Source of the DNA: Candidatus Nealsonbacteria bacterium
GTDB lineage: Bacteria; Patescibacteriota; Minisyncoccia; Minisyncoccales; DAOVPY01
Direction: 5' to 3'
Assembly (NCBI GenBank): GCA_030628945.1
Contig: DAOVPY010000005.1
Location: 1-52,541, forward strand
Length of the DNA stretch: 52,541 nt
The translations under genes were made by a program, and so were the position numbers. Each line of letters starts with the position of its first letter. Position 1 is the stretch's first letter. The notes under the pieces were generated by a model, which did no database searches, had not been told where the DNA came from, and saw only the letters and a program-made list of their open reading frames with translations. This document shows, piece after piece, positions 2,888 through 35,770 of the stretch.

Positions 2888-2914
2888 CCCCCGCGCCAAA
2901 ATTTGGCGCGGGGG
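2888..2914. repeat. GC-rich hairpin related to family C; possible terminator
   Basis: CCCCCGCGCCAAAATTTGGCGCGGGGG. Confidence 0.6.
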
Positions 2915-15478: not shown

Positions 15479-15532
15479 CAAAATATCCATTACAAAATCT
15501 CGCGATCGCGAGATTTTGTAATGGATATTTTG
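15479..15532. repeat. 54-bp perfect palindrome between convergent genes
   Basis: CAAAATATCCATTACAAAATCTCGCGA|TCGCGAGATTTTGTAATGGATATTTTG. Confidence 0.9.
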
Positions 15533-15545
15533 TTTTTCGTCTATT

Positions 15546-16007
15546 TTATTCTTCGTCTTTTATAACGATTTTTTGATTTTTTTTCTTTTTGATTTTGGGT
15601 ATGGTCAAGGTCAAAACGCCATCTTTCACTTTTGCCTCAATTTTGGACGCGTCAACTTCTTCAGGCAAAATAAGCTGCCTGGAAAAAAGCCCCCAAAAGC
15701 ATTCCCGGTAAAAATACTTGCTCTCTTCGTTTTCAGCCGGCTTTTTTCTGCCGCCCCTTATGGTCAACACGCCATTTTCAATAGAAATATCTAAATCTTT
15801 CGCCTTAACGCCGGCAATAAAGGACTGGACCACCAAACTTTCCTCTGTTTCATAAACATCAATTGATAATTCTCCCTCGCTTGTCCCCGCGCCATAACAA
15901 GTTTCTCGTTTGGTGCTGGGGCTTGTTTGTTTCAGGGGCCGCTCTGTCTCTTGAACTTCTTTCTCTTTATTGTTTGTATTCTTTTTTAATTTATTTAAGA
16001 AAGACAT
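15546..16007 (-). CDS. Hsp20/alpha-crystallin small heat-shock protein
   Basis: IDVYET, GVLTIRG, RECFWGLFSRQLILP, DGVLTLTIPK. Confidence 0.92.
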   Translation of the reverse strand: MSFLNKLKKNTNNKEKEVQETERPLKQTSPSTKRETCYGAGTSEGELSIDVYETEESLVVQSFIAGVKAKDLDISIENGVLTIRGGRKKPAENEESKYFYRECFWGLFSRQLILPEEVDASKIEAKVKDGVLTLTIPKIKKKKNQKIVIKDEE

Positions 16008-25685: not shown

Positions 25686-25773
25686 CGCTCGGCAGATGAA
25701 AATTTTTAGTAATAGACCCACCCAGACCACCCCATACTGAAAATTTTCATCCGCCTCGCTACTCAATTGAAAA
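25686..25773. repeat. Family B stem-loop element, inverted relative to the 26789 copy
   Basis: GATGAAAATTTTTAGTA...TACTGAAAATTTTCATC flanked by TCGCTCGGC and CCTCGC..CTCAATTGAAAA. Confidence 0.6.
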
Positions 25774-25775
25774 AA

Positions 25776-26819
25776 ATGCTGACAAAATTTATTTTGGGAT
25801 TACTTGTTTTTCTTCTGCTTTTATTTGGCTTCTTTTTTGTCGGTGAGCCACAACAGGCAAAAGAAATCATTTGGGGAGTTAATTTTTCCCAAAAACATTC
25901 TGAAAATTTAGGATTAAATTGGAAAGAAAATTATTTAGCTTTATTAGAGGATTTGGGAGCAAAAAATCTGCGGCTGGCAGTTCACTGGGATTTAATTAAG
26001 CCAAAACAAGGAGAATATAATTTTGAGGATTTGGACTGGCAGATTGAACAGGCAAAAAATCACGATGCAAAAATTATCTTGATAATTGGGATGAAAACCA
26101 CGCGCTGGCCCGAATGCCATTTACCGGAATGGGCAAAAAAATTAGACAAAGTACAACAGCAGGGACAAATTTTAGGCCTGCTGCGAACAATTGTCTTAAG
26201 ATATAAAAATTCTTTGGCTATTGAATATTGGCAAATAGAAAACGAGCCGCTTTTTCCTTTTGGAGATTGCCCATGGAGAGATAAAAAATTTTTAAACGAT
26301 GAAGTGGCTATAGTTAAATATCTTGACCCTCAACAGAGACCGATTATCATAAACACCAGCGGCGAATGGTCTCTTTGGCTCAAGGAAGCAAAAATAGGGG
26401 ATATAGTCGGCACCTCTTTATATAGGAAAATCTGGTTTACCCCCACACTTATAAATAAGTTGTGGGGGGCTCAAGAAATAGGGATGTATATTGACTATCG
26501 ATTTTTCCCGCCAATTTATTTTTGGCGAAGGGCGCAAATTATAAAAAAAATCTTCAATAAAAAAGTAATTTGCGTTGAACTGCAGGCAGAGCCATGGGGA
26601 CCGCTTTTGCTTTATGACTCGCCTCTTGAAGAACAAGAAAAGACAATGAATTTAGAACAATTCCAAAAAAACATTGAATTTGCCAAAAAAACCGGACTTG
26701 ATACATTTTATCTCTGGGGGAGTGAATGGTGGTACTGGCTGAAAACCAATCACAATCAACCTGAAATTTGGAATCAGTCCAAAAAATTATTTTCAAGTGA
26801 GCGAGGGAATGAAAAATGA
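25776..26819 (+). CDS. Membrane-anchored clan GH-A glycoside hydrolase-like protein
   Basis: N-terminal TM, WQIENEP acid/base motif, ELQAEPW, LWGSEWW. Confidence 0.75.
   Translation: MLTKFILGLLVFLLLLFGFFFVGEPQQAKEIIWGVNFSQKHSENLGLNWKENYLALLEDLGAKNLRLAVHWDLIKPKQGEYNFEDLDWQIEQAKNHDAKIILIIGMKTTRWPECHLPEWAKKLDKVQQQGQILGLLRTIVLRYKNSLAIEYWQIENEPLFPFGDCPWRDKKFLNDEVAIVKYLDPQQRPIIINTSGEWSLWLKEAKIGDIVGTSLYRKIWFTPTLINKLWGAQEIGMYIDYRFFPPIYFWRRAQIIKKIFNKKVICVELQAEPWGPLLLYDSPLEEQEKTMNLEQFQKNIEFAKKTGLDTFYLWGSEWWYWLKTNHNQPEIWNQSKKLFSSERGNEK
26440..26468 (+). repeat. Family C element in-frame in the glycoside hydrolase
   Basis: CCCCCACAC-TTATAAATAA-GTTGTGGGGG, within TPTLINKLWGA. Confidence 0.8.
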
Positions 26820-26917
26820 ATTTATTCATTTTCCATTCGCGAGCGAACGCAGAAAATGTATCCTAATGGGACAATTTTCAAGTGAACGAGGGAATGAAAA
26901 ATGAATAAATTCATTTT
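26789..26917. repeat. Family B: two 44-bp direct repeats with internal hairpins
   Basis: ATTTTCAAGTGA(G/A)CGAGGGAATGAAAAATGAAT..ATTCATTTT at 26789-26832 and 26874-26917. Confidence 0.8.
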
Positions 26918-26964
26918 AACATTTTTGACAAACAAACAAAATAATTCTAAAATAAATCAAAAAT

Positions 26965-28227
26965 ATGTCTATGTATGATTTGCCAAAATTTGAAAAGCCG
27001 AATTTTCCTCTTTTGAAATCTCCATCCGGAAAATCCTGCTCCTTTTTTAAATTGGCAATTTTAACAATTTTTATATCTGTTTTTTTCGGTTTTTTAGCCG
27101 GAACTCTTTCCGGCGCTTACTTTTATTTAGAAATAAAAAATTATTTAAGCCAGCTTAACATTGAATTGCCGGAGCCGCAAACTGTTGAAAAAGAAAAAAT
27201 CGTTGAGAGAGTGGTTGAATATATCCCTCAGACATCCCAGGAAGAAGCGATTATTCAAGCGGTGGAAAAAATTTCTCACGCAGTAGTAAGCATTATTATT
27301 ACCAAAGACCTGCCCGCAATTGAAGTCGGAGGCGGAACCGGATTTATTATTTCTAAGAAAGGAATGATTTTAACCAATAAACACGTGGTTTTAGACAAAA
27401 AAGCCGATTATACGGTCTTGATGAATGACGGCAGCAAATTCCCGGCAAAAGTTTTAGCCAGAGACCCTTTCCAGGATTTAGCCATTTTGAAAATTGAAAA
27501 AGAAGAAAAAATAGACGACCAGGGCAACCTTGCTTCAAAATCATTCCCCGTGGCTCAACTTGGCGATTCAGCGAAATTACAAATGGGCCAGACAGTTATT
27601 GCCATTGGCAACGCCTTGGGCGAATTCCGGAATACGGTTTCTGTGGGAGTAATTTCCGGATTAGGCAGAACCATTACCGCGTCCGGAGGCGGATTGGTGG
27701 AAACTCTGGAAGATGTTATTCAAACAGACGCCGCCATTAATAAAGGCAATTCCGGAGGACCGCTTTTGAACTTAAAAGGAGAGGTGATAGGCATTAATAC
27801 CGCCATGGTCCAGGGCGCTCAAAGCATTGGTTTTGCCATTTCAATAAATAAAGCTAAAAAAGACATTAAACAAGTTCAAGAAACCGGCAAAATTTCCTAT
27901 GTTTTTTTAGGAATATACTATACTTTAATTACTGAAAATCTTAAAGAAAAGTATGACCTGCCGGTTGGCTATGGCGTCTGGGTAGGCCGCGATAAGTACG
28001 GCGAAAAAATTGAAGATCCGATTTTCCCGGATTCGGCCGCTGAAAAAGCTGAATTCCGGATAGACGACATTATTTTAGAAATGGATGGCGAAAAAATTAC
28101 TTTAGAAAATTCCTTAGCCAAAGTTATTTCAAGATATAATCCCGGGGATGAAGTGAAATTTAAAATTTTGAGAAACAACGAAGAAAAAATTGTTCCGGTA
28201 ATTTTAGGAGCAAAAAATGGGGGTTGA
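26965..28227 (+). CDS. HtrA/DegP serine protease with PDZ domain
   Basis: TNKHVV, DLAILK, QTDAAINKGNSGGPL. Confidence 0.93.
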   Translation: MSMYDLPKFEKPNFPLLKSPSGKSCSFFKLAILTIFISVFFGFLAGTLSGAYFYLEIKNYLSQLNIELPEPQTVEKEKIVERVVEYIPQTSQEEAIIQAVEKISHAVVSIIITKDLPAIEVGGGTGFIISKKGMILTNKHVVLDKKADYTVLMNDGSKFPAKVLARDPFQDLAILKIEKEEKIDDQGNLASKSFPVAQLGDSAKLQMGQTVIAIGNALGEFRNTVSVGVISGLGRTITASGGGLVETLEDVIQTDAAINKGNSGGPLLNLKGEVIGINTAMVQGAQSIGFAISINKAKKDIKQVQETGKISYVFLGIYYTLITENLKEKYDLPVGYGVWVGRDKYGEKIEDPIFPDSAAEKAEFRIDDIILEMDGEKITLENSLAKVISRYNPGDEVKFKILRNNEEKIVPVILGAKNGG

Positions 28228-28259
28228 CACGCCTTTGAGAAGGGGATAAGGTATTAAAA

Positions 28260-28766
28260 ATGCTTAAAATATTTGAAAAAACAATCCTGTTTGGGATAAC
28301 CTCAATTTTGATTGGAGGAACATTTTTCTTTTGTTTGGCTTACGATACGGAACAATCCGATGTTCAAATCTTTTCTCAAGAAAAGGAACGGGTCTTAAAT
28401 GAGAATTCTTTGCTGATTGCGCAAGACAACAGTGTTCTGTCCTCTTCGCCCCTGCCAGAGCTCAAAATGGTAAGGCAAATAAAAGTTATCACAACCGCCT
28501 ATTCCAGCTGTGTTTGGCAGACGGATGACACGCCTTTTATCACGGCTGCCGGAACTTCTGTAAGGGACGGGATTGTGGCAAATAATCTGCTTCCATTCGG
28601 CACAAAAGTCCGATTGCCGGAACTTTACGGAGACAAAATTTTTGTGGTTGAAGACAGAATGCACGCGCGCAAAGGTTATTATCACATAGACATCTGGTTT
28701 GCTTCTTATCACGACGCCCTGAATTTCGGAGCCAAGAGAACTTATATGGAAGTGCTGGAAAACTAA
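28260..28766 (+). CDS. 3D-domain protein
   Basis: TAYSS...TDDTPFITAAG, VVEDRM, IDIWF. Confidence 0.85.
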   Translation: MLKIFEKTILFGITSILIGGTFFFCLAYDTEQSDVQIFSQEKERVLNENSLLIAQDNSVLSSSPLPELKMVRQIKVITTAYSSCVWQTDDTPFITAAGTSVRDGIVANNLLPFGTKVRLPELYGDKIFVVEDRMHARKGYYHIDIWFASYHDALNFGAKRTYMEVLEN

Positions 28767-28832
28767 AATTTTTTAAAATTCCATTAAAAAAACGAGGATA
28801 TTTAATATGCTCGTTTTTATTTTATCTAATTT

Positions 28833-29291
28833 TTAAAGTGTCGGAGAAAGAACCGCAATTGCGACTTTAATCGCCTCATCTAAATCAGAAACAATGAAAC
28901 CGCTAACCTCGCGAATCATTGCGTGGCTGTGAATATTCTCTTTTTCCATCGCCACAACAATTGGTTTTCTTAAAATATCTGCCCAGGCAATCTCCATTAC
29001 CGAACCAACAGAGATTTTATCTGCTCCTAAAAAATTTACCAAAATCATATCACAGCGCGTAACATCCATCCTATCCCTGCAAGTGATTCCCTTTTGGGTC
29101 GCCACGGGATACTCTTTGTAAGAACCCTTGAGTTTTTGTTCCTTGCTAAGAAACTCTTTGCCGCGCATCGGGGAAACTCCTTTGATGTGTTTTGGAAGTT
29201 TTTTGGAAACATATTCACGCCAATCAATACTCTCGTTATAAGAGCAATCTAAAATCGGGCCGGCGAGATACAACAAAAATTCTTTTTCCAT
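28833..29291 (-). CDS. Nucleoside 2-deoxyribosyltransferase-like protein
   Basis: YLAGP, CDMILV, SVGSVMEIAWA. Confidence 0.8.
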   Translation of the reverse strand: MEKEFLLYLAGPILDCSYNESIDWREYVSKKLPKHIKGVSPMRGKEFLSKEQKLKGSYKEYPVATQKGITCRDRMDVTRCDMILVNFLGADKISVGSVMEIAWADILRKPIVVAMEKENIHSHAMIREVSGFIVSDLDEAIKVAIAVLSPTL

Positions 29292-29378
29292 TTTTTCTAT
29301 CTCCTTTTTTAAAGTGCGATAAAACCTTTTGTTAAAGGTCTATAATAGAAAATAGCAAAAAACAGCAAAAATTACAAG

Positions 29379-29411
29379 CCCCCACACTAATATATTAGTG
29401 GTGGGGGCAAG
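29379..29411 (+). repeat. Family C element, intergenic
   Basis: CCCCCACAC-TAATATATTA-GTGGTGGGGGCAAG. Confidence 0.8.
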
Positions 29412-29463
29412 CCCCCAAAAATACAAAATGGCAGAGACCTGTTCTCTGCCATTTTAATTATAA

Positions 29464-29709
29464 CTATTTTACGAAAATCCAATACTCCTTCTCTTCTTCA
29501 TCTTCTCCACGGGAAACAATCATACTTATAGATTTAATATTGATTATAATCCTTTCTGATTTCGAAATTGTGCCAATAAGTTCTATTGTCTTCTCTCCAA
29601 AGGGTTTAGCACAAACACTATTTAGAATATACGATGTTCTATGAGACGTAAAATTACTTTCAGATACATGTACCTCTTTACCCTTAAGTTTCTTAAGTTC
29701 TTTTATCAT
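29464..29709 (-). CDS. Hypothetical protein
   Basis: 81-aa ORF with GAGG upstream and a terminator-like hairpin at 29425-29455. Confidence 0.5.
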   Translation of the reverse strand: MIKELKKLKGKEVHVSESNFTSHRTSYILNSVCAKPFGEKTIELIGTISKSERIIINIKSISMIVSRGEDEEEKEYWIFVK

Positions 29710-29850
29710 TTTATCTTCCTCTATCTATTTTTCAAGGTTCCTACCTTCACCTTATAAAATCCCAAAAAAAAGTCAATACTTTTATACATAAATGAAATGG
29801 AAAATTTTCTTTTACAAAATGCGGTTTGAGTTGATATTTTTGGGCTTTTT

Positions 29851-30585
29851 TCAAGCGAAAACTGCTTGATTTAATTGCCAGCCGATTTTTGAGGGATAAT
29901 TTTGTTTGATATAATGTCTCCTTTCTGTTGATTTCCATTTCTCAAAAATTTGACGCTTGCGAGGAAGATATAAAGTAGGATTATTTTGATACATAAATTC
30001 GGCTAATTTCTCGCAATCGTCAATATAAAAATCAATATAATATAAAGGAATGTTTCCTTTTTTCTCTTTTACTTGATGAATTGTTTTCAATAGAATATCT
30101 AAACTTTTACTAAGATGCTGATTTAAATCAGTAATAAAGGATAAACTAGTACTTGGAAAATTTGCTTTAATTTGAAGAACTTTATTAACCTTGTAAATAT
30201 AAACTGAACCATCTCCGTCAAAAAATCCTCTTACAAAATCAGAAAAATATCTTTCTGGAACTTTTATAGGATTTAAATTATAAGTTTTTCTTGGAAATAT
30301 TCCTAAATTCATCAAATCTTCGCATATCTTTCTGTTGCAAAAATAAATTTGGTAATAAGGTATTTTCTGAGAATTATACTTAATACTCAGAGAACAATCA
30401 GGGCTTATATGCTTCCCCATTTTTAAGAGAGATTCTTTGTCTTTGGAGGTTATATTTAGAACATAACTATTTTTACGTCCTTTCCGTTTACAGATACAAC
30501 CGTCAGCAACAATATATCCTAAAATATAACTCATTTCAGAATTCCATGAATTAAAAAAATTTTTATTTAGAGACAATCTTCTCAT
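29851..30585 (-). CDS. Free-standing two-motif LAGLIDADG homing endonuclease-like protein
   Basis: YILGYIVADGC and FVRGFFDGDGS; ATG at 30585. Confidence 0.85.
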   Translation of the reverse strand: MRRLSLNKNFFNSWNSEMSYILGYIVADGCICKRKGRKNSYVLNITSKDKESLLKMGKHISPDCSLSIKYNSQKIPYYQIYFCNRKICEDLMNLGIFPRKTYNLNPIKVPERYFSDFVRGFFDGDGSVYIYKVNKVLQIKANFPSTSLSFITDLNQHLSKSLDILLKTIHQVKEKKGNIPLYYIDFYIDDCEKLAEFMYQNNPTLYLPRKRQIFEKWKSTERRHYIKQNYPSKIGWQLNQAVFA

Positions 30586-30590
30586 ATAAT

Positions 30591-30676
30591 TGGTGCCCGG
30601 GGTGGGATTTGCACCCACACGGGGATAACCCCACTGGAGTTTAAGTCCAGATCGTCTGCTGTTCCGACACCCGGGC
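30591..30676 (-). tRNA. tRNA-Leu(TAA), CCA encoded
   Basis: CTGGA-CTTAAAC-TCCAG, long variable arm, T-loop TGCAAAT. Confidence 0.9.
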
Positions 30677-30684
30677 AAAAATTG

Positions 30685-30756
30685 AGGCACGGGCGGGAGT
30701 TGCACCCGCGTATAGTAGTTTTGCAAACTACCGCCTTGCTCCTTGGCTACCGTGCC
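30685..30756 (-). tRNA. tRNA-Cys(GCA)
   Basis: GTAGT-TTGCAAA-ACTAC, U73 discriminator, T-loop TGCAACT. Confidence 0.9.
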
Positions 30757-30767
30757 ATACTATTGAT

Positions 30768-31742
30768 TTATTCTAACAATTTTATCACTTTTTTCAAGAC
30801 GCTTTCTATACTGCCTTTCTGGCGGAAACCGGCGGCGTACGCATGACCGCCTCCGCCCAGGGCCTCGGCCAAAGGAGCCACTGTCCCTCCTTTATAGGGT
30901 TCTGTTCTTAAACTTCCTTCAATCTCACCCGGCTTATGTTCTGTTAAAAACAAAGCAAATTTTGCCTCGGGAATAGTGGAAATAAAACTGGAAATTCTGG
31001 CTAAATCAGCCGGACCAGCTCCCTGTTCCTCTAAATCCTTAGTGGTGAGCCAGGAATAAACTAAACCGGTTTTCTCATGGCATTTGAGCCGAGAAAGAGC
31101 TGTTCCCCAGATTTTGGAAGCAGTTTGAGGATTATCTAACCTAAAAACCCGCTGGCTAATTTTAAATAAAGGAGCGCCCAGCAAAATAAGTTCAGAAACA
31201 ATAGCCAGGGTCTGGCTGGAACAGGAAGCATGAGAAAACCCGCCGGTATCAGAAACAATCCCGGTTAAAAGCCCTGTAGCGATTTTTTTATCAATTTTTA
31301 TTCCGGAATCCTTCAGCCATAAATAAATAATCTCCGCGGTTGAAGAAAATTTTGGTTCAATAATTTTAATTCTGCCGCGCTGGTCGCTTTTTAAGTGGTG
31401 GTCAATGGTGATAATCTTTTTCTCATCAACGCTTTTTGGAAGCCGCAATCTTTTAAAATCGCCGTAATCAAGGCAGAATAACAAATCAAAATCCTGAATA
31501 TCAATCCCGCTAACAGCTGGGTTGATTTCAGAAAAATCGGGCAGAAAATCAAGTCCCAACGGAGGCGCGGTTGGGAGATAACAAAAAACTTCTTTGTTTT
31601 GTTCTTGAAAAACCCGATAAAGAGCTAAAACCGAGCCAACGGCGTCAGGGTCGGGATTTTCATGAGCTGTAATAAAAATTTTCTTTGCTGTTTCTAACGA
31701 CTTGCTAATTCGCTGAAATTTTTCAGATAAATCAGTCATCAT
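30768..31742 (-). CDS. nrnA: DHH/DHHA1 phosphoesterase (NrnA-like)
   Basis: HENPDPDA, IDHH, SDTGGF, GGGGHAYAAG; follows rbfA. Confidence 0.88.
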   Translation of the reverse strand: MMTDLSEKFQRISKSLETAKKIFITAHENPDPDAVGSVLALYRVFQEQNKEVFCYLPTAPPLGLDFLPDFSEINPAVSGIDIQDFDLLFCLDYGDFKRLRLPKSVDEKKIITIDHHLKSDQRGRIKIIEPKFSSTAEIIYLWLKDSGIKIDKKIATGLLTGIVSDTGGFSHASCSSQTLAIVSELILLGAPLFKISQRVFRLDNPQTASKIWGTALSRLKCHEKTGLVYSWLTTKDLEEQGAGPADLARISSFISTIPEAKFALFLTEHKPGEIEGSLRTEPYKGGTVAPLAEALGGGGHAYAAGFRQKGSIESVLKKVIKLLE

Positions 31743-32074
31743 AATTTGATTTTTTCCAAAAGTTCTTCTATTCTGGCGGCTTTGCTTGTTTCTTTTTCTT
31801 CTATAAATTTAATTTTGGGCGTTAATTTCATTTTTAGCCGCTTATTTAATTTCTGTTGGAAATTATAAATCATTCGCTTCAAAATTCGGAGAACTTTTGA
31901 AATTTGACATTGGGGAATAACGCTGATATAAACCTTGGACTGATTCAGGTCAAACGAGGTTTCCACTCTGGTTATTGTAATCAAAACATCTCTTGAAAAA
32001 TCAACCTCCCTGAGGATAATTCGGGATAGCTCCCGTTTAATTAACTCATTGACTCGTTCAATACGATTGCTCAC
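31739..32074 (-). CDS. rbfA: Ribosome-binding factor A
   Basis: RIERVNELIKRELS, ITITRVETS, TPKIKF; follows infB. Confidence 0.92.
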   Translation of the reverse strand: MSNRIERVNELIKRELSRIILREVDFSRDVLITITRVETSFDLNQSKVYISVIPQCQISKVLRILKRMIYNFQQKLNKRLKMKLTPKIKFIEEKETSKAARIEELLEKIKL

Positions 32075-33576
32075 AGTTCTCCTTTTTTCCTTTCCTCGGT
32101 ATAAAACGCTAAAATATCTCCTTTCTCAATTCTGCCCGAGCCCTCATAAAGTATGCCAACCTCATTCCCTTTGCCTGCTTTTTCTATGTCTTTTTTATTC
32201 TTCTGAAGATGAACAAGTTTGCCGGTTCCGATTTTCTCTTCCTCGCGGAAAACTTCAATTTTAACTCCCTTTTTCACCTCTCCCTCAACAATCCTCCCCC
32301 CGACAATTTGACGATTCTTTTCGGTCTTGAAAACTATTAAAATTTTAAGCTTGCCTAAATCAATCCTGACCTTAGTTGGTTCAATCTTTTTTTCCATGAG
32401 CTGACGAACTGCCTGAACAATCTCATAAATGACTTCAAACGTCCTTACTCCTATATTCTCCCTTTCAATCAATCTTGAGGCGATATAATTCGTTTTTACC
32501 CGAAAACCCAAAATCCGGGCTTTTGCCGATTTTGCCAGTTTAATATCGCTCTCATTAATCTCGCCGACCTCGCTTTTCAAAATTCTTAAAACAACCCTCT
32601 CTTGAGGCAGTCCCTTAAGAACTTGTCTAATCGCCTCCAAAGAACCGGAAACATCTGCTTTCAAAATTAAATTTAGCGCTGTCTTGCCCTCCTCCACTAA
32701 TAATACGTCTCTCTTTTCCATCTTGCTTGTTTTTTTAAAAACATATCTCTCGGCTGATACAATGTCCGGCTGAATTTTAAATTCCTCGCCAACGCAAGGA
32801 GCATTTTCAAAACCAATAACAATTATCGGCTGAGAAGGCAGGGCCTGTTTTAAAGATTTCCCTTGAAAATCCTCTAAGATTTTAATCTTGCCAAAAGTAG
32901 AAACAGTGGCAATAATATCTCCCAGCCTCAATATTCCATCTCGTAAAAGCAGGGTGGCTGTTGGCCCCCGTTGACTGTCCAAATAGGCCTCAATCACCGC
33001 TCCTTCGCCCTTCTTGGTTAAATCTCCGTGAAGACCTTCAATCTCCGCCACTAACAAGATAAGTCCTAAAAGCTCTGAAATTCCTTTTTTGGTTTTGGCT
33101 GAAGTCTCTATCGCGGGAATTTTCCCTCCCATTGATTCAACAACTACATCCTGCTTGAATAATTCTCTTTTAACTTTTTCAGGGTCAGCTTCTGGTTTGT
33201 CTATTTTATTTATAGCGACAATCATGGGAATGCCGGATTTTTTGATATGAATAATGGATTCTTTGGTTTGGGGCTTTATTCCTTCTTCAGCCGCTACCAC
33301 TAAAATCGCTATATCGGCCGCTTTTGCTCCCCGGTAGCGCATTATTGAAAATGCTTCATGCCCGGGCGTGTCAATAAAAGTAATTTTCTTGCCTTCATGC
33401 TCAACTTCATAAGCTCCAATGTGCTGTGTAATGCCGCCTGATTCTTTCGCGGTAATCTTAAAATCTTTAACCGCCTCTAAAATAGAAGATTTGCCGTGGT
33501 CAACATGCCCTAAAACCACCACGACAGGGGGACGTGACTGGATATTTTTTGTTTGTTTTACGGTTTCTTGGGGCAT
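32071..33576 (-). CDS. infB: Translation initiation factor IF-2 (short form)
   Basis: RPPVVVVLGHVDHGKS, GGITQHIGAY, DTPGHEAF. Confidence 0.97.
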   Translation of the reverse strand: MPQETVKQTKNIQSRPPVVVVLGHVDHGKSSILEAVKDFKITAKESGGITQHIGAYEVEHEGKKITFIDTPGHEAFSIMRYRGAKAADIAILVVAAEEGIKPQTKESIIHIKKSGIPMIVAINKIDKPEADPEKVKRELFKQDVVVESMGGKIPAIETSAKTKKGISELLGLILLVAEIEGLHGDLTKKGEGAVIEAYLDSQRGPTATLLLRDGILRLGDIIATVSTFGKIKILEDFQGKSLKQALPSQPIIVIGFENAPCVGEEFKIQPDIVSAERYVFKKTSKMEKRDVLLVEEGKTALNLILKADVSGSLEAIRQVLKGLPQERVVLRILKSEVGEINESDIKLAKSAKARILGFRVKTNYIASRLIERENIGVRTFEVIYEIVQAVRQLMEKKIEPTKVRIDLGKLKILIVFKTEKNRQIVGGRIVEGEVKKGVKIEVFREEEKIGTGKLVHLQKNKKDIEKAGKGNEVGILYEGSGRIEKGDILAFYTEERKKGEL

Positions 33577-33637
33577 AATAAGTTTTTTATCTTACAAATT
33601 TTTAATTTTTAATTTTTAATTTTTAAAAATTTAGAAT

Positions 33638-34000
33638 TTAAGCCCGCAGGGCTTTAGATATCGCTTCTTTCTCTTCCTCTGACAGCGAATGCTGGGAAAG
33701 GCCGTTTTTTACAACTTTGGTATAGGTTCTGTTCATTTCCCTGCTGTAATAACTGGTAAGGACAAAACCATTATTGCGAGCGTCAAGCAAAGCAATGCAA
33801 AAACTCTGGTCGCCTCCAACCTCTTTAAAAGGATTAAATCTAACAATGCCTATTTTTTGCAAAAAGGACTGGCTTTCTTTCTTAAAATCCTCTAAATCCT
33901 TTTTTATCTTCTGATTGTCTTTATCCAGTCGTTCTAAAAATTCCAAAATTTCTTTTTGGTTTTTGGGCTGGTTTTTGTTTTTTTTGAAAAATTTGAACAT
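33638..34000 (-). CDS. DUF4446-like protein
   Basis: QKIGIVRFNPFKEVGGDQSF...LSEEEKEAI. Confidence 0.8.
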   Translation of the reverse strand: MFKFFKKNKNQPKNQKEILEFLERLDKDNQKIKKDLEDFKKESQSFLQKIGIVRFNPFKEVGGDQSFCIALLDARNNGFVLTSYYSREMNRTYTKVVKNGLSQHSLSEEEKEAISKALRA

Positions 34001-34002
34001 AG

Positions 34003-34089
34003 CGGCGGGAGAAGGATTCGAACCCTCGATGCCCTTTCAAGCATAGCGGTTTTCGAAACCGCCCCGTTCGTCCACTCCGGCATCCCGCC
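34003..34089 (-). tRNA. tRNA-Ser(CGA)
   Basis: GCGGT-TTCGAAA-ACCGC, long variable arm, G73. Confidence 0.95.
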
Positions 34090-34188
34090 AATTAATCTAT
34101 CATACTAATATCTTATCCTCAAAAAGTCAAAAACACAAACAAAACCATTCAAAAAATCCCCTACTTAGAGCGGAGGATTTTTAGTTTG

Positions 34189-34260
34189 TGGACCCAGCGA
34201 GACTCGAACTCGCAACCTCTTCGATGCCATCGAAGCGCGCTGCCATTGCGCCATGGGCCC
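34189..34260 (-). tRNA. tRNA-Ala(GGC)
   Basis: G3:U70, CTTCG-ATGGCAT-CGAAG. Confidence 0.95.
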
Positions 34261-35211
34261 CTAATTTTTATGGATTTTTCTAATTGCCTGAGCGAGCAAA
34301 GGGGCAACTGAGATGATTTTAATTTTCTTGCCCCCACTACCTAAATATAGGTGTGGGGGTGTACTTTTCTTTCCAAAGGAAAAAGGCAGGGTGTCGGTTA
34401 TAAATAATTTTGAAATTGAAGATTTGTTAATTTTCTCAATCGCTTTTCCAAAAAACAATGGGTGGGTGACGCAAGCGTAAATTTTCTTCGCGGCTTTTTT
34501 CTTCGCGATTTCTGCGGCAGCGATTAAAGTGTTGCCTGTATCAATAATATCGTCAACTATAATAACTGATTTATTTTTTATTTTGCCGCTGATTTTTTTA
34601 ATTTTCACTTGATTTAGCTTTTGCCGCTCTTTATCAATAACAGCAATACCACAATTTCCCAGAGACGCGGCAAAAGACCGCGCCATTTTGACGCTCCCGG
34701 CGTCCGGAGCCAGGACAACTAAATCTTTTGGCAATTTTGGCAAATGTTTCTTAATCTCTTTAATAAAAATCATATCAGCGGATAAATTTTCTGCCGGACT
34801 TTTGAAAAATTTTAAAACTCTGTCAGAATGAATATCTATTGTTAAAATTCTGTCAGCCCCTGCCGTTCTAATCAAATTCGTTATCAATTCAGCGGAAACC
34901 GGTGTCCCTGGCTGGTCTTTTTTGTCCTGTCTGGCATATCCGAAATAGGGGATAACAGCTGTAATTCTGCGAGCCGAGCTGTTCTTCGCCGCGTCAATCA
35001 TTAATAAAAGTTCCAATAAATTCTCTGCCGGAGAAGGAAAGGACTGAATGATAAAAATATCTCTGCCTTTAATATCTTCTTTATATCTGAGCCAAATTTC
35101 TCCATCGCTGAATTTCCTGAATTCTATCCTGCCTAATTTCTGCCCCAATTCTTTGGCTATTTTTTTCGCTAATCCAGCGCTGAATTGTCCGCTAAAAATC
35201 TTGAATTCCAT
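34261..35211 (-). CDS. prs: Ribose-phosphate pyrophosphokinase
   Basis: FSDGE, PYFGYARQD, APDAG, VDDIIDTGNT. Confidence 0.96.
   Translation of the reverse strand: MEFKIFSGQFSAGLAKKIAKELGQKLGRIEFRKFSDGEIWLRYKEDIKGRDIFIIQSFPSPAENLLELLLMIDAAKNSSARRITAVIPYFGYARQDKKDQPGTPVSAELITNLIRTAGADRILTIDIHSDRVLKFFKSPAENLSADMIFIKEIKKHLPKLPKDLVVLAPDAGSVKMARSFAASLGNCGIAVIDKERQKLNQVKIKKISGKIKNKSVIIVDDIIDTGNTLIAAAEIAKKKAAKKIYACVTHPLFFGKAIEKINKSSISKLFITDTLPFSFGKKSTPPHLYLGSGGKKIKIISVAPLLAQAIRKIHKN
34327..34359 (-). repeat. Family C element in-frame in prs
   Basis: Minus strand CCCCCACAC-CTATATTTAG-GTAGTGGGGGCAAG, within TPPHLYLGSGGK. Confidence 0.8.
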
Positions 35212-35642: not shown

Positions 35643-35770
35643 GTATCTCTATTACTGATTACTGATTGGGCTTGTGCTTAACTCGGTTAAGCACAAGCCC
35701 AAATGGTTGCTGATTACTGATTATCATAAAATTTGACTGAAATCAACCCATAATGTTAAAATAAAAATGT

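Follow-up and report, generated by a model that had tools for sequence, protein, structure and literature searches.

Why should a short, GC-capped hairpin occur three times in one contig, and twice in frame inside the open reading frames (ORFs) of enzymes? The question is raised by contig DAOVPY010000005.1 of Candidatus Nealsonbacteria bacterium (assembly GCA_030628945.1), the 52,541-bp stretch that is analysed here as a whole and is called the window; it is contig 9 of an 825-kb, 17-contig assembly of 38% G+C (G000) that is rated 100% complete. A preliminary description, made from the letters of the window, had recognized one palindrome family with copies in a glycoside hydrolase gene, in an intergenic region and in prs. 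Our results make it probable (about 0.7) that these hairpins are non-autonomous copies, similar to MITEs (miniature transposable elements with inverted repeats), of a very small Patescibacteria-type element that bears the gene for a UPF0213/Slx1-like GIY-YIG nuclease of about 85 residues.

The pattern CCCCCAC-N8-18-GTGGGGG matches the window three times and is absent from all of 100 dinucleotide-preserving shuffles, which rules out a chance origin of the hairpins. Inspection of the sequences confirmed that the three copies share one geometry, with a GC outer stem, an AT-rich inner stem and a single bulged base in one arm (T, G and A); as had been claimed, the inner stems differ in sequence from copy to copy and pair with themselves in every case. 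The 33-bp spans first given for two of the copies (29379-29411 and 34327-34359) have to be shortened, for although the hairpins are real, the element itself is 29 bp long and those spans take in four flanking bases. The unit of 33 bp is better described as an element of 29 bp with about 4 bp added by target duplication, a duplication that is no longer visible at the two copies of the window that lie in ORFs. After the 29379 copy comes a CCCCCA stub, perhaps the beginning of a tandem copy that has been truncated. Two related hairpins, one at 2888-2914 and one in hsp20, likewise turned out to be real, and both have direct repeats at their flanks. The former is a CCCCCGCGCC...GGCGCGGGGG variant with compensatory A>G and T>C changes, and its 14-nt arms are 100% complementary. 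The latter (15885-15921) has the 5-bp repeat CTTGT on both sides, giving 37+5=42 bp or 14 codons, and its arms are similar to those of the ATAACGAG sub-family, whose members elsewhere bear the nuclease gene.

The genome-wide search that had been proposed as a check revealed many further copies, with 17 for the exact pattern, as against 0 for a reversed control pattern, and about 34 in a looser census, which allowed up to three mismatches over the two terminal 10-mers and was curated by eye, nested, composite and long low-quality pairings being dropped. Short forms measure 26-29 bp, their loops being mainly of two types, CCTAATTAGG and CCAAAAATTTGG. Among the long forms, which have the same termini with longer arms and small inner hairpins, lengths of 49, 71 (three copies), 98, 104, 142 and 166 bp occur. 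Tandem copies are spaced by exactly four bases, and terminal inverted repeats of the kind expected of a MITE are present, with arms of 10-26 bp that are near-perfectly complementary. Several other genomes contain the 29-bp bulged version (..GGTAGTGGGGG) in identical form, so that it is a lineage of its own and not just a product of decay. An assembly artefact was considered and ruled out, since the hairpins are found in many independent assemblies as well as in contigs from three samples of one cold-seep study; three public runs of that study, one of them possibly the source, contain the stretch, their contigs cover the 26440 and 34331 copies without differences, and among the joints listed (15 of 38) none skips an element. 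A structured RNA gene was also ruled out by the occurrence of copies in both orientations, by the copies within ORFs and by the duplications at the flanks. An Rfam scan of 19 loci with long forms gave no family match to the element, only sub-threshold hairpins resembling miRNA, besides a tRNA and RNase P RNA nearby.

Comparison with homologous genes shows that the copies are insertions. The translations agree with the peptides reported before, TPTLINKLWGA in the hydrolase and TPPHLYLGSGG(K) in Prs, and the homologue alignments that had been suggested as a check delimit an insert of exactly 11 residues in both proteins. In Prs, which was identified as a ribose-phosphate pyrophosphokinase by Pfam (Pribosyltran_N/Pribosyl_synth; ORF 34261-35211, minus strand), the insert TPPHLYLGSGG is absent in all nine of the closest homologues (52-74% identity). 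The hydrolase-like protein (ORF 25767-26819, plus strand), which has weak matches to Pfam Glyco_hydro_42/10, carries an insert that is mostly encoded by the element and is absent in 10 of 10 homologues (63-79% identity). A Prs homologue from another assembly (P0004; 67% identical by BLASTP) has a 13-residue insert, LPPHQNFVCGGGG (LPPHQNF..GGGG), at a different position of the protein, apparently the result of a separate in-frame insertion from this element family. The Hsp20 ORF (15546-16007, minus strand; Pfam HSP20, E 8.6e-22) shows at its insert site an 8-column gap in three of six homologues, within a region of variable length, so that this alignment is consistent with insertion and would not be proof alone. 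A shorter protein, P0242 (139 vs 153 aa), was rejected as an insert-free Hsp20 allele, since it is the same gene called from a later start. At the DNA level, a search for empty sites among close Prs relatives in metagenome contigs returned 589 pattern matches, none of which was confirmed as such. As to Prs itself, its distribution is patchy, with homologues in only 4 of 30 related genomes at E<=1e-20 (33-36% identity). The closest ones, after a few metagenome proteins, bear the label Ignavibacteria, a hint that the gene was acquired horizontally.

Intragenic copies are not peculiar to the window, and for 11 of the 34 genome copies the position is well within an ORF of at least 90 aa. Pfam scanning covered 11 host ORFs, eight with the nine interior copies found outside the window and three with a long form at the start region, and 10 of the 11 could be named (DegT-type aminotransferase, phosphoglucose isomerase, FtsQ-type POTRA protein, enolase, alanyl-tRNA synthetase, cation-efflux protein, protein-isoaspartate methyltransferase, two glycosyltransferases and a radical-SAM protein). 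In the FtsQ-type POTRA protein, two 29-bp tandem copies 4 bp apart (G000 C13:52631-52692) are read in frame and give the doubled peptide DPHYLNIGVGASPHYPNIGVGA. Even the RNase P RNA gene carries a 49-bp copy (G000 C7:33462-33510; locus L193 528-941, minus strand), which together with a TTAA duplication forms an unaligned insert near the 3' end. The interrupted RNA still scores 108.9 bits against Rfam RF00010 (gathering score 100), and since the copy sits as an insert in RNase P RNA, the element is tolerated as an extra helix in an essential ribozyme. We infer that the two copies in the window added 11 harmless amino acids to each enzyme and are tolerated passengers, not adaptations.

Direct repeats at the flanks are the second line of evidence for mobility, and the copies do carry 4-bp repeats that are mostly of the TTNA type. 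Exact repeats flank 15 of the 34 genome copies (TTGA five times, TCAA three, CAAG two, and TGAG, CTTG, TTTA, TTAA and TGAA once each), compared with 1/34 and 0/34 in offset controls, 1/34 when the flanks were compared in inverted orientation as extensions of the palindrome, and 0.8% at random positions of equal spacing; several more copies match after a boundary shift of one base. Loci from other species found in a GTDB scan behave alike, with an exact 4-bp repeat in 45 of the 118 loci among the matches listed: TTTA 13 times, TAAA 8, CAAG 3, TTGA 2, six others once each and 13 in high-GC loci. Most repeats elsewhere fit TTNA or its complement.

The termini of the copies are those of longer elements that bear a nuclease gene, and the arms differ between lineages while staying complementary. 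A relative (G015) has two 303-bp elements with the same termini, 100% identical to each other and placed between different flanks, which enclose an ORF of 85 residues with a Pfam GIY-YIG match (E 4.5e-15). Among the 30 best GIY-YIG loci, all from other genomes of the order, there are 23 in which CCCCCACACC...GGTGTGGGGG, or arms that covary with this form, bracket the ORF in a unit of about 290-330 bp, and 21 of the 23 bracketed ORFs are intact (84-92 aa). The arms, which were compared by script because an alignment of whole elements was too ragged at the ends, begin with CCCC(C)NCNC and end with GNGN(G)GGGG, with one gene between them. They fall into at least nine sequence types (e.g. CCCCGCACACAATTTGCTCTG.. 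and CCCCCTCACTCGAAAATTA), and in every type the two arms are complementary to one another over 11-26 bp. The terminal 14+14 bases of one full-length element account for the whole of the 26-bp form, the 142-bp form has 17+16 terminal bases in common with that same element, and the 29379 copy is identical over its left 13 and right 7 terminal bases to a nuclease-bearing element in L161. From these matches, the short forms appear to be the juxtaposed termini of full-length elements. The covariation seen in the preliminary description, which did not foresee the link to a nuclease element, does exist, yet it does not speak for a selected RNA: the inner stems differ because the termini come from different sub-families, each with complementary arms. 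A longer element with the same termini, as would be expected for a MITE, is present in 23 other genomes, and its sole protein is a GIY-YIG nuclease, not an established transposase. This genome has no nuclease gene between such arms, and for that reason its 34 copies are orphans.

Twelve of the 19 intergenic copies examined adjoin, on one side, a TTGAC to which the duplicated TTGA gives rise, and in 10 of these cases a -10-like hexamer follows at a distance of 16-17 bp, by a loose criterion applied without a shuffle control. Insertion at a -35 box rebuilds the box through the TTGA duplication. Start codons are treated in a similar manner, since in start-codon copies the last G of the element and the duplicated TGA make a GTG start. 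For nine of the 23 full-length elements, the end coincides exactly with the first base of a host ORF. The ORF reaches a length of at least 100 aa in seven of these cases, and six of the seven have Pfam matches that begin at residues 1-5 or nearby (arginase, RNase H, serine hydroxymethyltransferase, radical SAM, DUF763 and ribosomal protein L24), the seventh being unnamed. The copies at start codons (L147, L148, L150, L151, L153, L155 and L156 in other genomes; C15:31905, C3:100748 and C3:147455 in G000) are either full-length or 71-104 bp long and have TGAA or TGAG duplicated, and the old ATG now opens a short frame into the element. This arrangement suggests that the nuclease gene and the host gene are coupled in translation. 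The three long forms at ORF starts in this genome obey the same GTG rule, and one of them lies at the start of the same radical-SAM gene that bears a full-length element, in opposite orientation, in another genome. Within ORFs a sieving by length can be seen: short copies are 29 bp long in 9 of 11 cases, against 1 of 16 between genes, and have on average 4.5 of six frames free of stops, against 3.0 of six for intergenic copies. Because 29+4=33 bp, such copies add 11 codons. Surviving copies thus lie where they do little harm, at -35 boxes, at start codons and, as 29-bp stop-free forms, in ORFs.

Of 401 genomes of the order, 70 contain the hairpin pattern, whereas the reversed control is found in 7. 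The distribution of the hairpin over the families is patchy; this genome has the most copies, and none was found in the only relative of the same family that was searched. In the GTDB scan, 48 of the 80 titled rows among the matches listed are Patescibacteria lineages; the remaining ones include groundwater metagenome-assembled genomes of other phyla and high-G+C actinobacteria, and some matches may be chance. Homologues of the 85-residue nuclease are present in 209 of the 401 genomes. They are found in 51 of the 70 hairpin-bearing genomes and in 158 of the 331 others, an odds ratio of 2.9 (p 1.2e-4) that does not control for relatedness.

The nuclease has the catalytic-type residues Y5, Y16, R26, H30, R61 and E62 as invariant positions, and no NCBIfam model scored above its cut-off. 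A sequence comparison with solved proteins gave 1ZG2 (E 7.7e-7) and 1YWL, both of UPF0213, as the nearest. An AlphaFold model built from 21 sequences reached a mean pLDDT of 96.7, and a Foldseek search with it returned 1ZG2 in first place (E 5e-4), followed by Slx1 (TM-score 0.62-0.66, root-mean-square deviation 2.2-2.3 Å, 25-31% identity, E 4e-3 to 2e-2) and HIGLE, a junction resolvase of plants, with I-TevI and UvrC well below these two. Because of this ranking, the predicted fold likens the nuclease to structure-specific enzymes more than to classical homing endonucleases, with E-values that are modest after the first match. Slx1, which serves in repair with Slx4 as its partner, has a zinc-finger domain in addition, and we know of nothing that links Slx1 or UPF0213 to a mobile element. 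Slx1/UPF0213 structures (PDB 6SEI/6SEH, 4XLG, 1ZG2 and 1YWL) are the best matches of the element nuclease by both fold and sequence, and the Slx1 entries are titled as recognising or processing branched DNA, a substrate that the arms of the element would form.

A mechanism can be proposed from these observations. When the arms fold into a single-strand hairpin or a cruciform, the resulting stem or four-way junction would be recognised by the nuclease, and a cut at the base of the stem would fall exactly on the boundary of the element. Insertion would follow a 4-nt staggered break at the target. Loss of the gene would leave the arms only (26-29 bp) or the arms with short inner hairpins (49-166 bp), and gene-less copies would be moved in trans; those of this genome could be fossils or could have been moved by a nuclease supplied from elsewhere. 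To our knowledge, a unit of about 300 bp is far smaller than any known insertion sequence. Taken to its full extent, the proposal is that of a new class of DNA transposon, the smallest autonomous one at about 300 bp, which has an 85-residue Slx1-like nuclease as its sole protein, is cut as a hairpin or cruciform at the stem base, enters a TTNA target with a 4-bp duplication, rebuilds -35 boxes or start codons, and includes a 29-bp lineage whose 33-bp footprint is tuned for in-frame entry into essential genes and structured RNAs of candidate phyla radiation (CPR) bacteria. This fuller proposal is put forward tentatively, and we would give it somewhat worse than even odds.

Several observations weigh against a nuclease-driven element. 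The 23 GIY-YIG loci analysed do not include the other seven of the best 30, one being nested or complex, two having one-sided or degenerate arms and four having none. The single GIY-YIG gene of this genome is only 35% identical to the element-borne kind, and no convincing bracketing arms were found around it. Nineteen of the 70 hairpin-bearing genomes have no GIY-YIG homologue at E<=1e-5, and one of these is 96% complete and has eight copies. Duplications are missing in places: the flanks of the 26440 copy (TTTA/GCTC) and those of the 34331 copy match at one of four positions each, copies in ORFs in general mostly lack them, and 3 of 11 closely related full-length elements have the unlike flanks TTTA...TGAA. 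We know of no GIY-YIG enzyme that joins DNA ends, so integration would need host repair or an activity not yet known. Complementary ends are equally expected of ordinary double-stranded terminal inverted repeats, and for this reason the hairpin or cruciform intermediate is put forward only conditionally. Lastly, the genome has three Y1_Tnp matches above the Pfam cut-off, which would offer another source of mobility.

Such Y1 transposases (IS200/IS605-type, similar to the tyrosine transposases associated with repetitive extragenic palindromes, or RAYTs) could have spread the hairpins as a kind of repetitive extragenic palindrome (REP). REPs are imperfect palindromes of 20-40 bp for which RAYTs are the textbook source, and REP/BIME sequences resemble the present family in being short, GC-rich, imperfect and numerous, and in flanking a small nuclease-type gene. 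The details do not agree with this origin. The Y1 genes are flanked by other hairpin families (GGCAGAGA-N5-TCTCTGCC or GTTTAAGGTAGAACCTTAAAC), and no paired copy of the studied family was seen within 2 kb of the three genes, where a loose scan (up to two mismatches) found one isolated arm-like 10-mer near each. REP and IS200 transposition proceeds without target duplication, whereas 15 of 34 copies have one here; a GTAG or CGTC head is found in 0 of 34 copies; and REPs are extragenic, while 11 of 34 copies lie within ORFs. We therefore hold an origin by Y1 transposition to be very improbable. As for other transposases, DDE_Tnp_1 had no match in this genome, further transposase families not having been searched.

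A separation of hairpin and gene has more to offer, but is still unlikely. Here the hairpins would be an independent repeat, and a free-standing GIY-YIG homing gene would cut the palindrome and copy itself into the loop. Palindromic sites would suit a dimeric nuclease, loops do hold many unrelated cargoes (small hairpins, inserts of 112-166 bp, the nuclease gene), and the hairpin-bearing genomes that lack a homologue, together with this one, which has 34 hairpins and no arm-bracketed nuclease, are readily accommodated. Yet the whole 303-bp unit, arms included, is identical at two different sites, and the full unit adjoins the start codons of at least six host gene families, which means that the arms move with the gene. 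To explain the flank duplications of the short hairpins, a separate means of mobility would still be required, and the long termini (up to 26 bp) that arm types share with nuclease-bearing elements would be left unexplained. It has also to be asked whether the hairpins are cis elements selected for a host function, as terminators, mRNA stabilisers, protein-binding sites or promoter-upstream elements. The 2888-2914 copy, which lies just downstream of a stop codon, is terminator-like, 12 of 19 intergenic copies are found immediately upstream of a -35-like TTGAC, and identical sequences recur in different families of the order. A host signal is not expected to show flank duplications or nuclease-bearing forms, nor to sit inside conserved enzymes and RNase P RNA where homologues have nothing; the patchy occurrence (70/401 genomes, 0 copies in the one same-family relative searched) and the lack of an Rfam family match also speak against it, and we give a host function very little credence. 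A nuclease-bearing element with gene-less derivatives is the reading that we retain.

No description of this element was found in the literature on GIY-YIG mobile elements, inverted repeats and MITEs of CPR bacteria or Patescibacteria. The hairpins are best placed as MITE-like repeats, or repeats like the Rickettsia palindromic elements (RPEs), with an Ssn-like nuclease association. The closest published system, Ssn, combines the gene for a small single-domain GIY-YIG nuclease with GC-capped hairpin repeats (NTS/SRM) that have many genome copies and lie on both flanks, and its authors note that the repeat-gene-repeat layout resembles an insertion sequence (Chenal et al., Nat Commun 2025, PMC11893778). 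Ssn nucleases cleave only single-stranded DNA, at specific sites, are defined as CDD family cd10448 and have their genes between two separate hairpins (PMC11893778). In the present case the gene lies in the loop and its flanks are the two arms of one hairpin, the nuclease is placed by Pfam GIY-YIG and by its nearest PDB entries (UPF0213/Slx1), and 4-bp flank duplications and in-frame intragenic copies set the repeats apart from those of Ssn. The main text makes no mention of Patescibacteria (PMC11893778). The motif is a different one as well, with 0 occurrences of the dRS3 core ATTCCC-N8-GGGAAT in this genome, the degenerate SRM motif not having been searched.

The copies within ORFs work like RPEs, which are palindromic selfish DNA found in frame in unrelated housekeeping genes of a reduced genome, where a conserved peptide is added and the protein is kept (PMC10969869). 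They are not members of that group. RPEs are about 150 bp long, occur in Rickettsia only and have no associated enzyme named in that review (PMC10969869), whereas the present copies measure 26-39 bp (33-42 bp with the duplication), differ in sequence and host lineage, have flank duplications and have termini in common with a nuclease-bearing element. Bacterial MITEs such as Correia/NEMIS, ERIC and RUP, as described there, are alike in their terminal inverted repeats, target duplications, small size, high number, non-coding nature and location near promoters or gene ends, and they too share termini with a longer gene-bearing element (PMC10969869). Here the presumed parent differs from MITE parents in that it has no DDE, serine, tyrosine or HUH enzyme, only the 85-residue GIY-YIG nuclease, and the shortest copies differ from bacterial MITEs in being two 13-nt termini alone. 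A survey of CPR ribosomal RNA genes describes GIY-YIG proteins in insertions that are neither introns nor homing-like, together with short uncharacterised insertions (PMC11270868); these insertions may be the same elements.

If the nuclease does mobilise the hairpins, a unit of about 300 bp would stand for a transposition chemistry that belongs to none of the known DDE, HUH, serine and tyrosine classes and would supply a compact, structure-guided DNA cutter. For CPR bacteria and Patescibacteria, the element would explain the odd short GC-rich inserts in conserved proteins and RNase P RNA, the frequently extended N-termini in annotations and the commonness of GIY-YIG minigenes, which 209 of 401 genomes of the order possess. 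Annotation would gain from the recognition of such inserts as selfish DNA and not as lineage-specific features of a protein.

Table 1. Hairpin copies in the window (positions on the plus strand)
Feature	Positions	Strand	Description
Hairpin copy	26440-26468	+	29 bp, in frame in glycoside-hydrolase-like ORF 25767-26819(+)
Hairpin copy	29379-29407		29 bp, intergenic, CAAG repeats at 29375-29378 and 29408-29411
Hairpin copy	34331-34359	-	29 bp, in frame in prs ORF 34261-35211(-)
Variant copy	2888-2914		27 bp, intergenic, TAAA repeat on both sides
Variant copy	15885-15921	-	37 bp, in frame, N-terminal region of Hsp20 ORF 15546-16007(-)

The two intergenic copies of the window (Table 1) differ in their surroundings. 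The 2888-2914 copy, placed between a stop codon and a promoter-like site, has a terminator-like score on the minus strand and adjoins TTTACT-17-TATAAT (10/12 matches). The 29379 copy showed no promoter-like site in the promoter scan and no terminator-like fit in the terminator scan. The family as such does not fit the class of intrinsic terminators, in which a GC-rich hairpin and a T-run follow a gene: one of the two intergenic copies scanned has that form, and the other three copies of the window lie within ORFs.

Other hairpins and a possible further nuclease gene occur in the window and elsewhere in the genome. The second family, GGCAGAGA-N5-TCTCTGCC, has nine copies genome-wide, including one at 29424-29456 of the window, which has a terminator-like score on the minus strand, those at C12:13950, 14480 and 14725 of this genome, and five more. 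Members of it lie on both sides of the Y1_Tnp gene at C12:13980-14465 in an arrangement like that of a REPtron, and the third Y1 gene (C12:33255-33995) has GTTTAAGGTAGAACCTTAAAC hairpins as flanks. A 291-aa ORF at 29851-30726 (minus strand), with Pfam matches to LAGLIDADG_3/LAGLIDADG_1, may be a gene for a homing endonuclease and lies at a distance of about 440 bp from the 29379 copy. Just downstream of the Hsp20 stop codon, positions 15479-15532 form a perfect 54-bp palindrome of unrelated sequence (CAAAATATCCATTACAAAATCTCGCGAT...), whose 28-nt overlapping arms are 100% complementary, and at 35666-35702 a perfect hairpin of another sequence type has 17-nt arms (TTGGGCTTGTGCTTAAC / GTTAAGCACAAGCCCAA) and a 3-nt loop.

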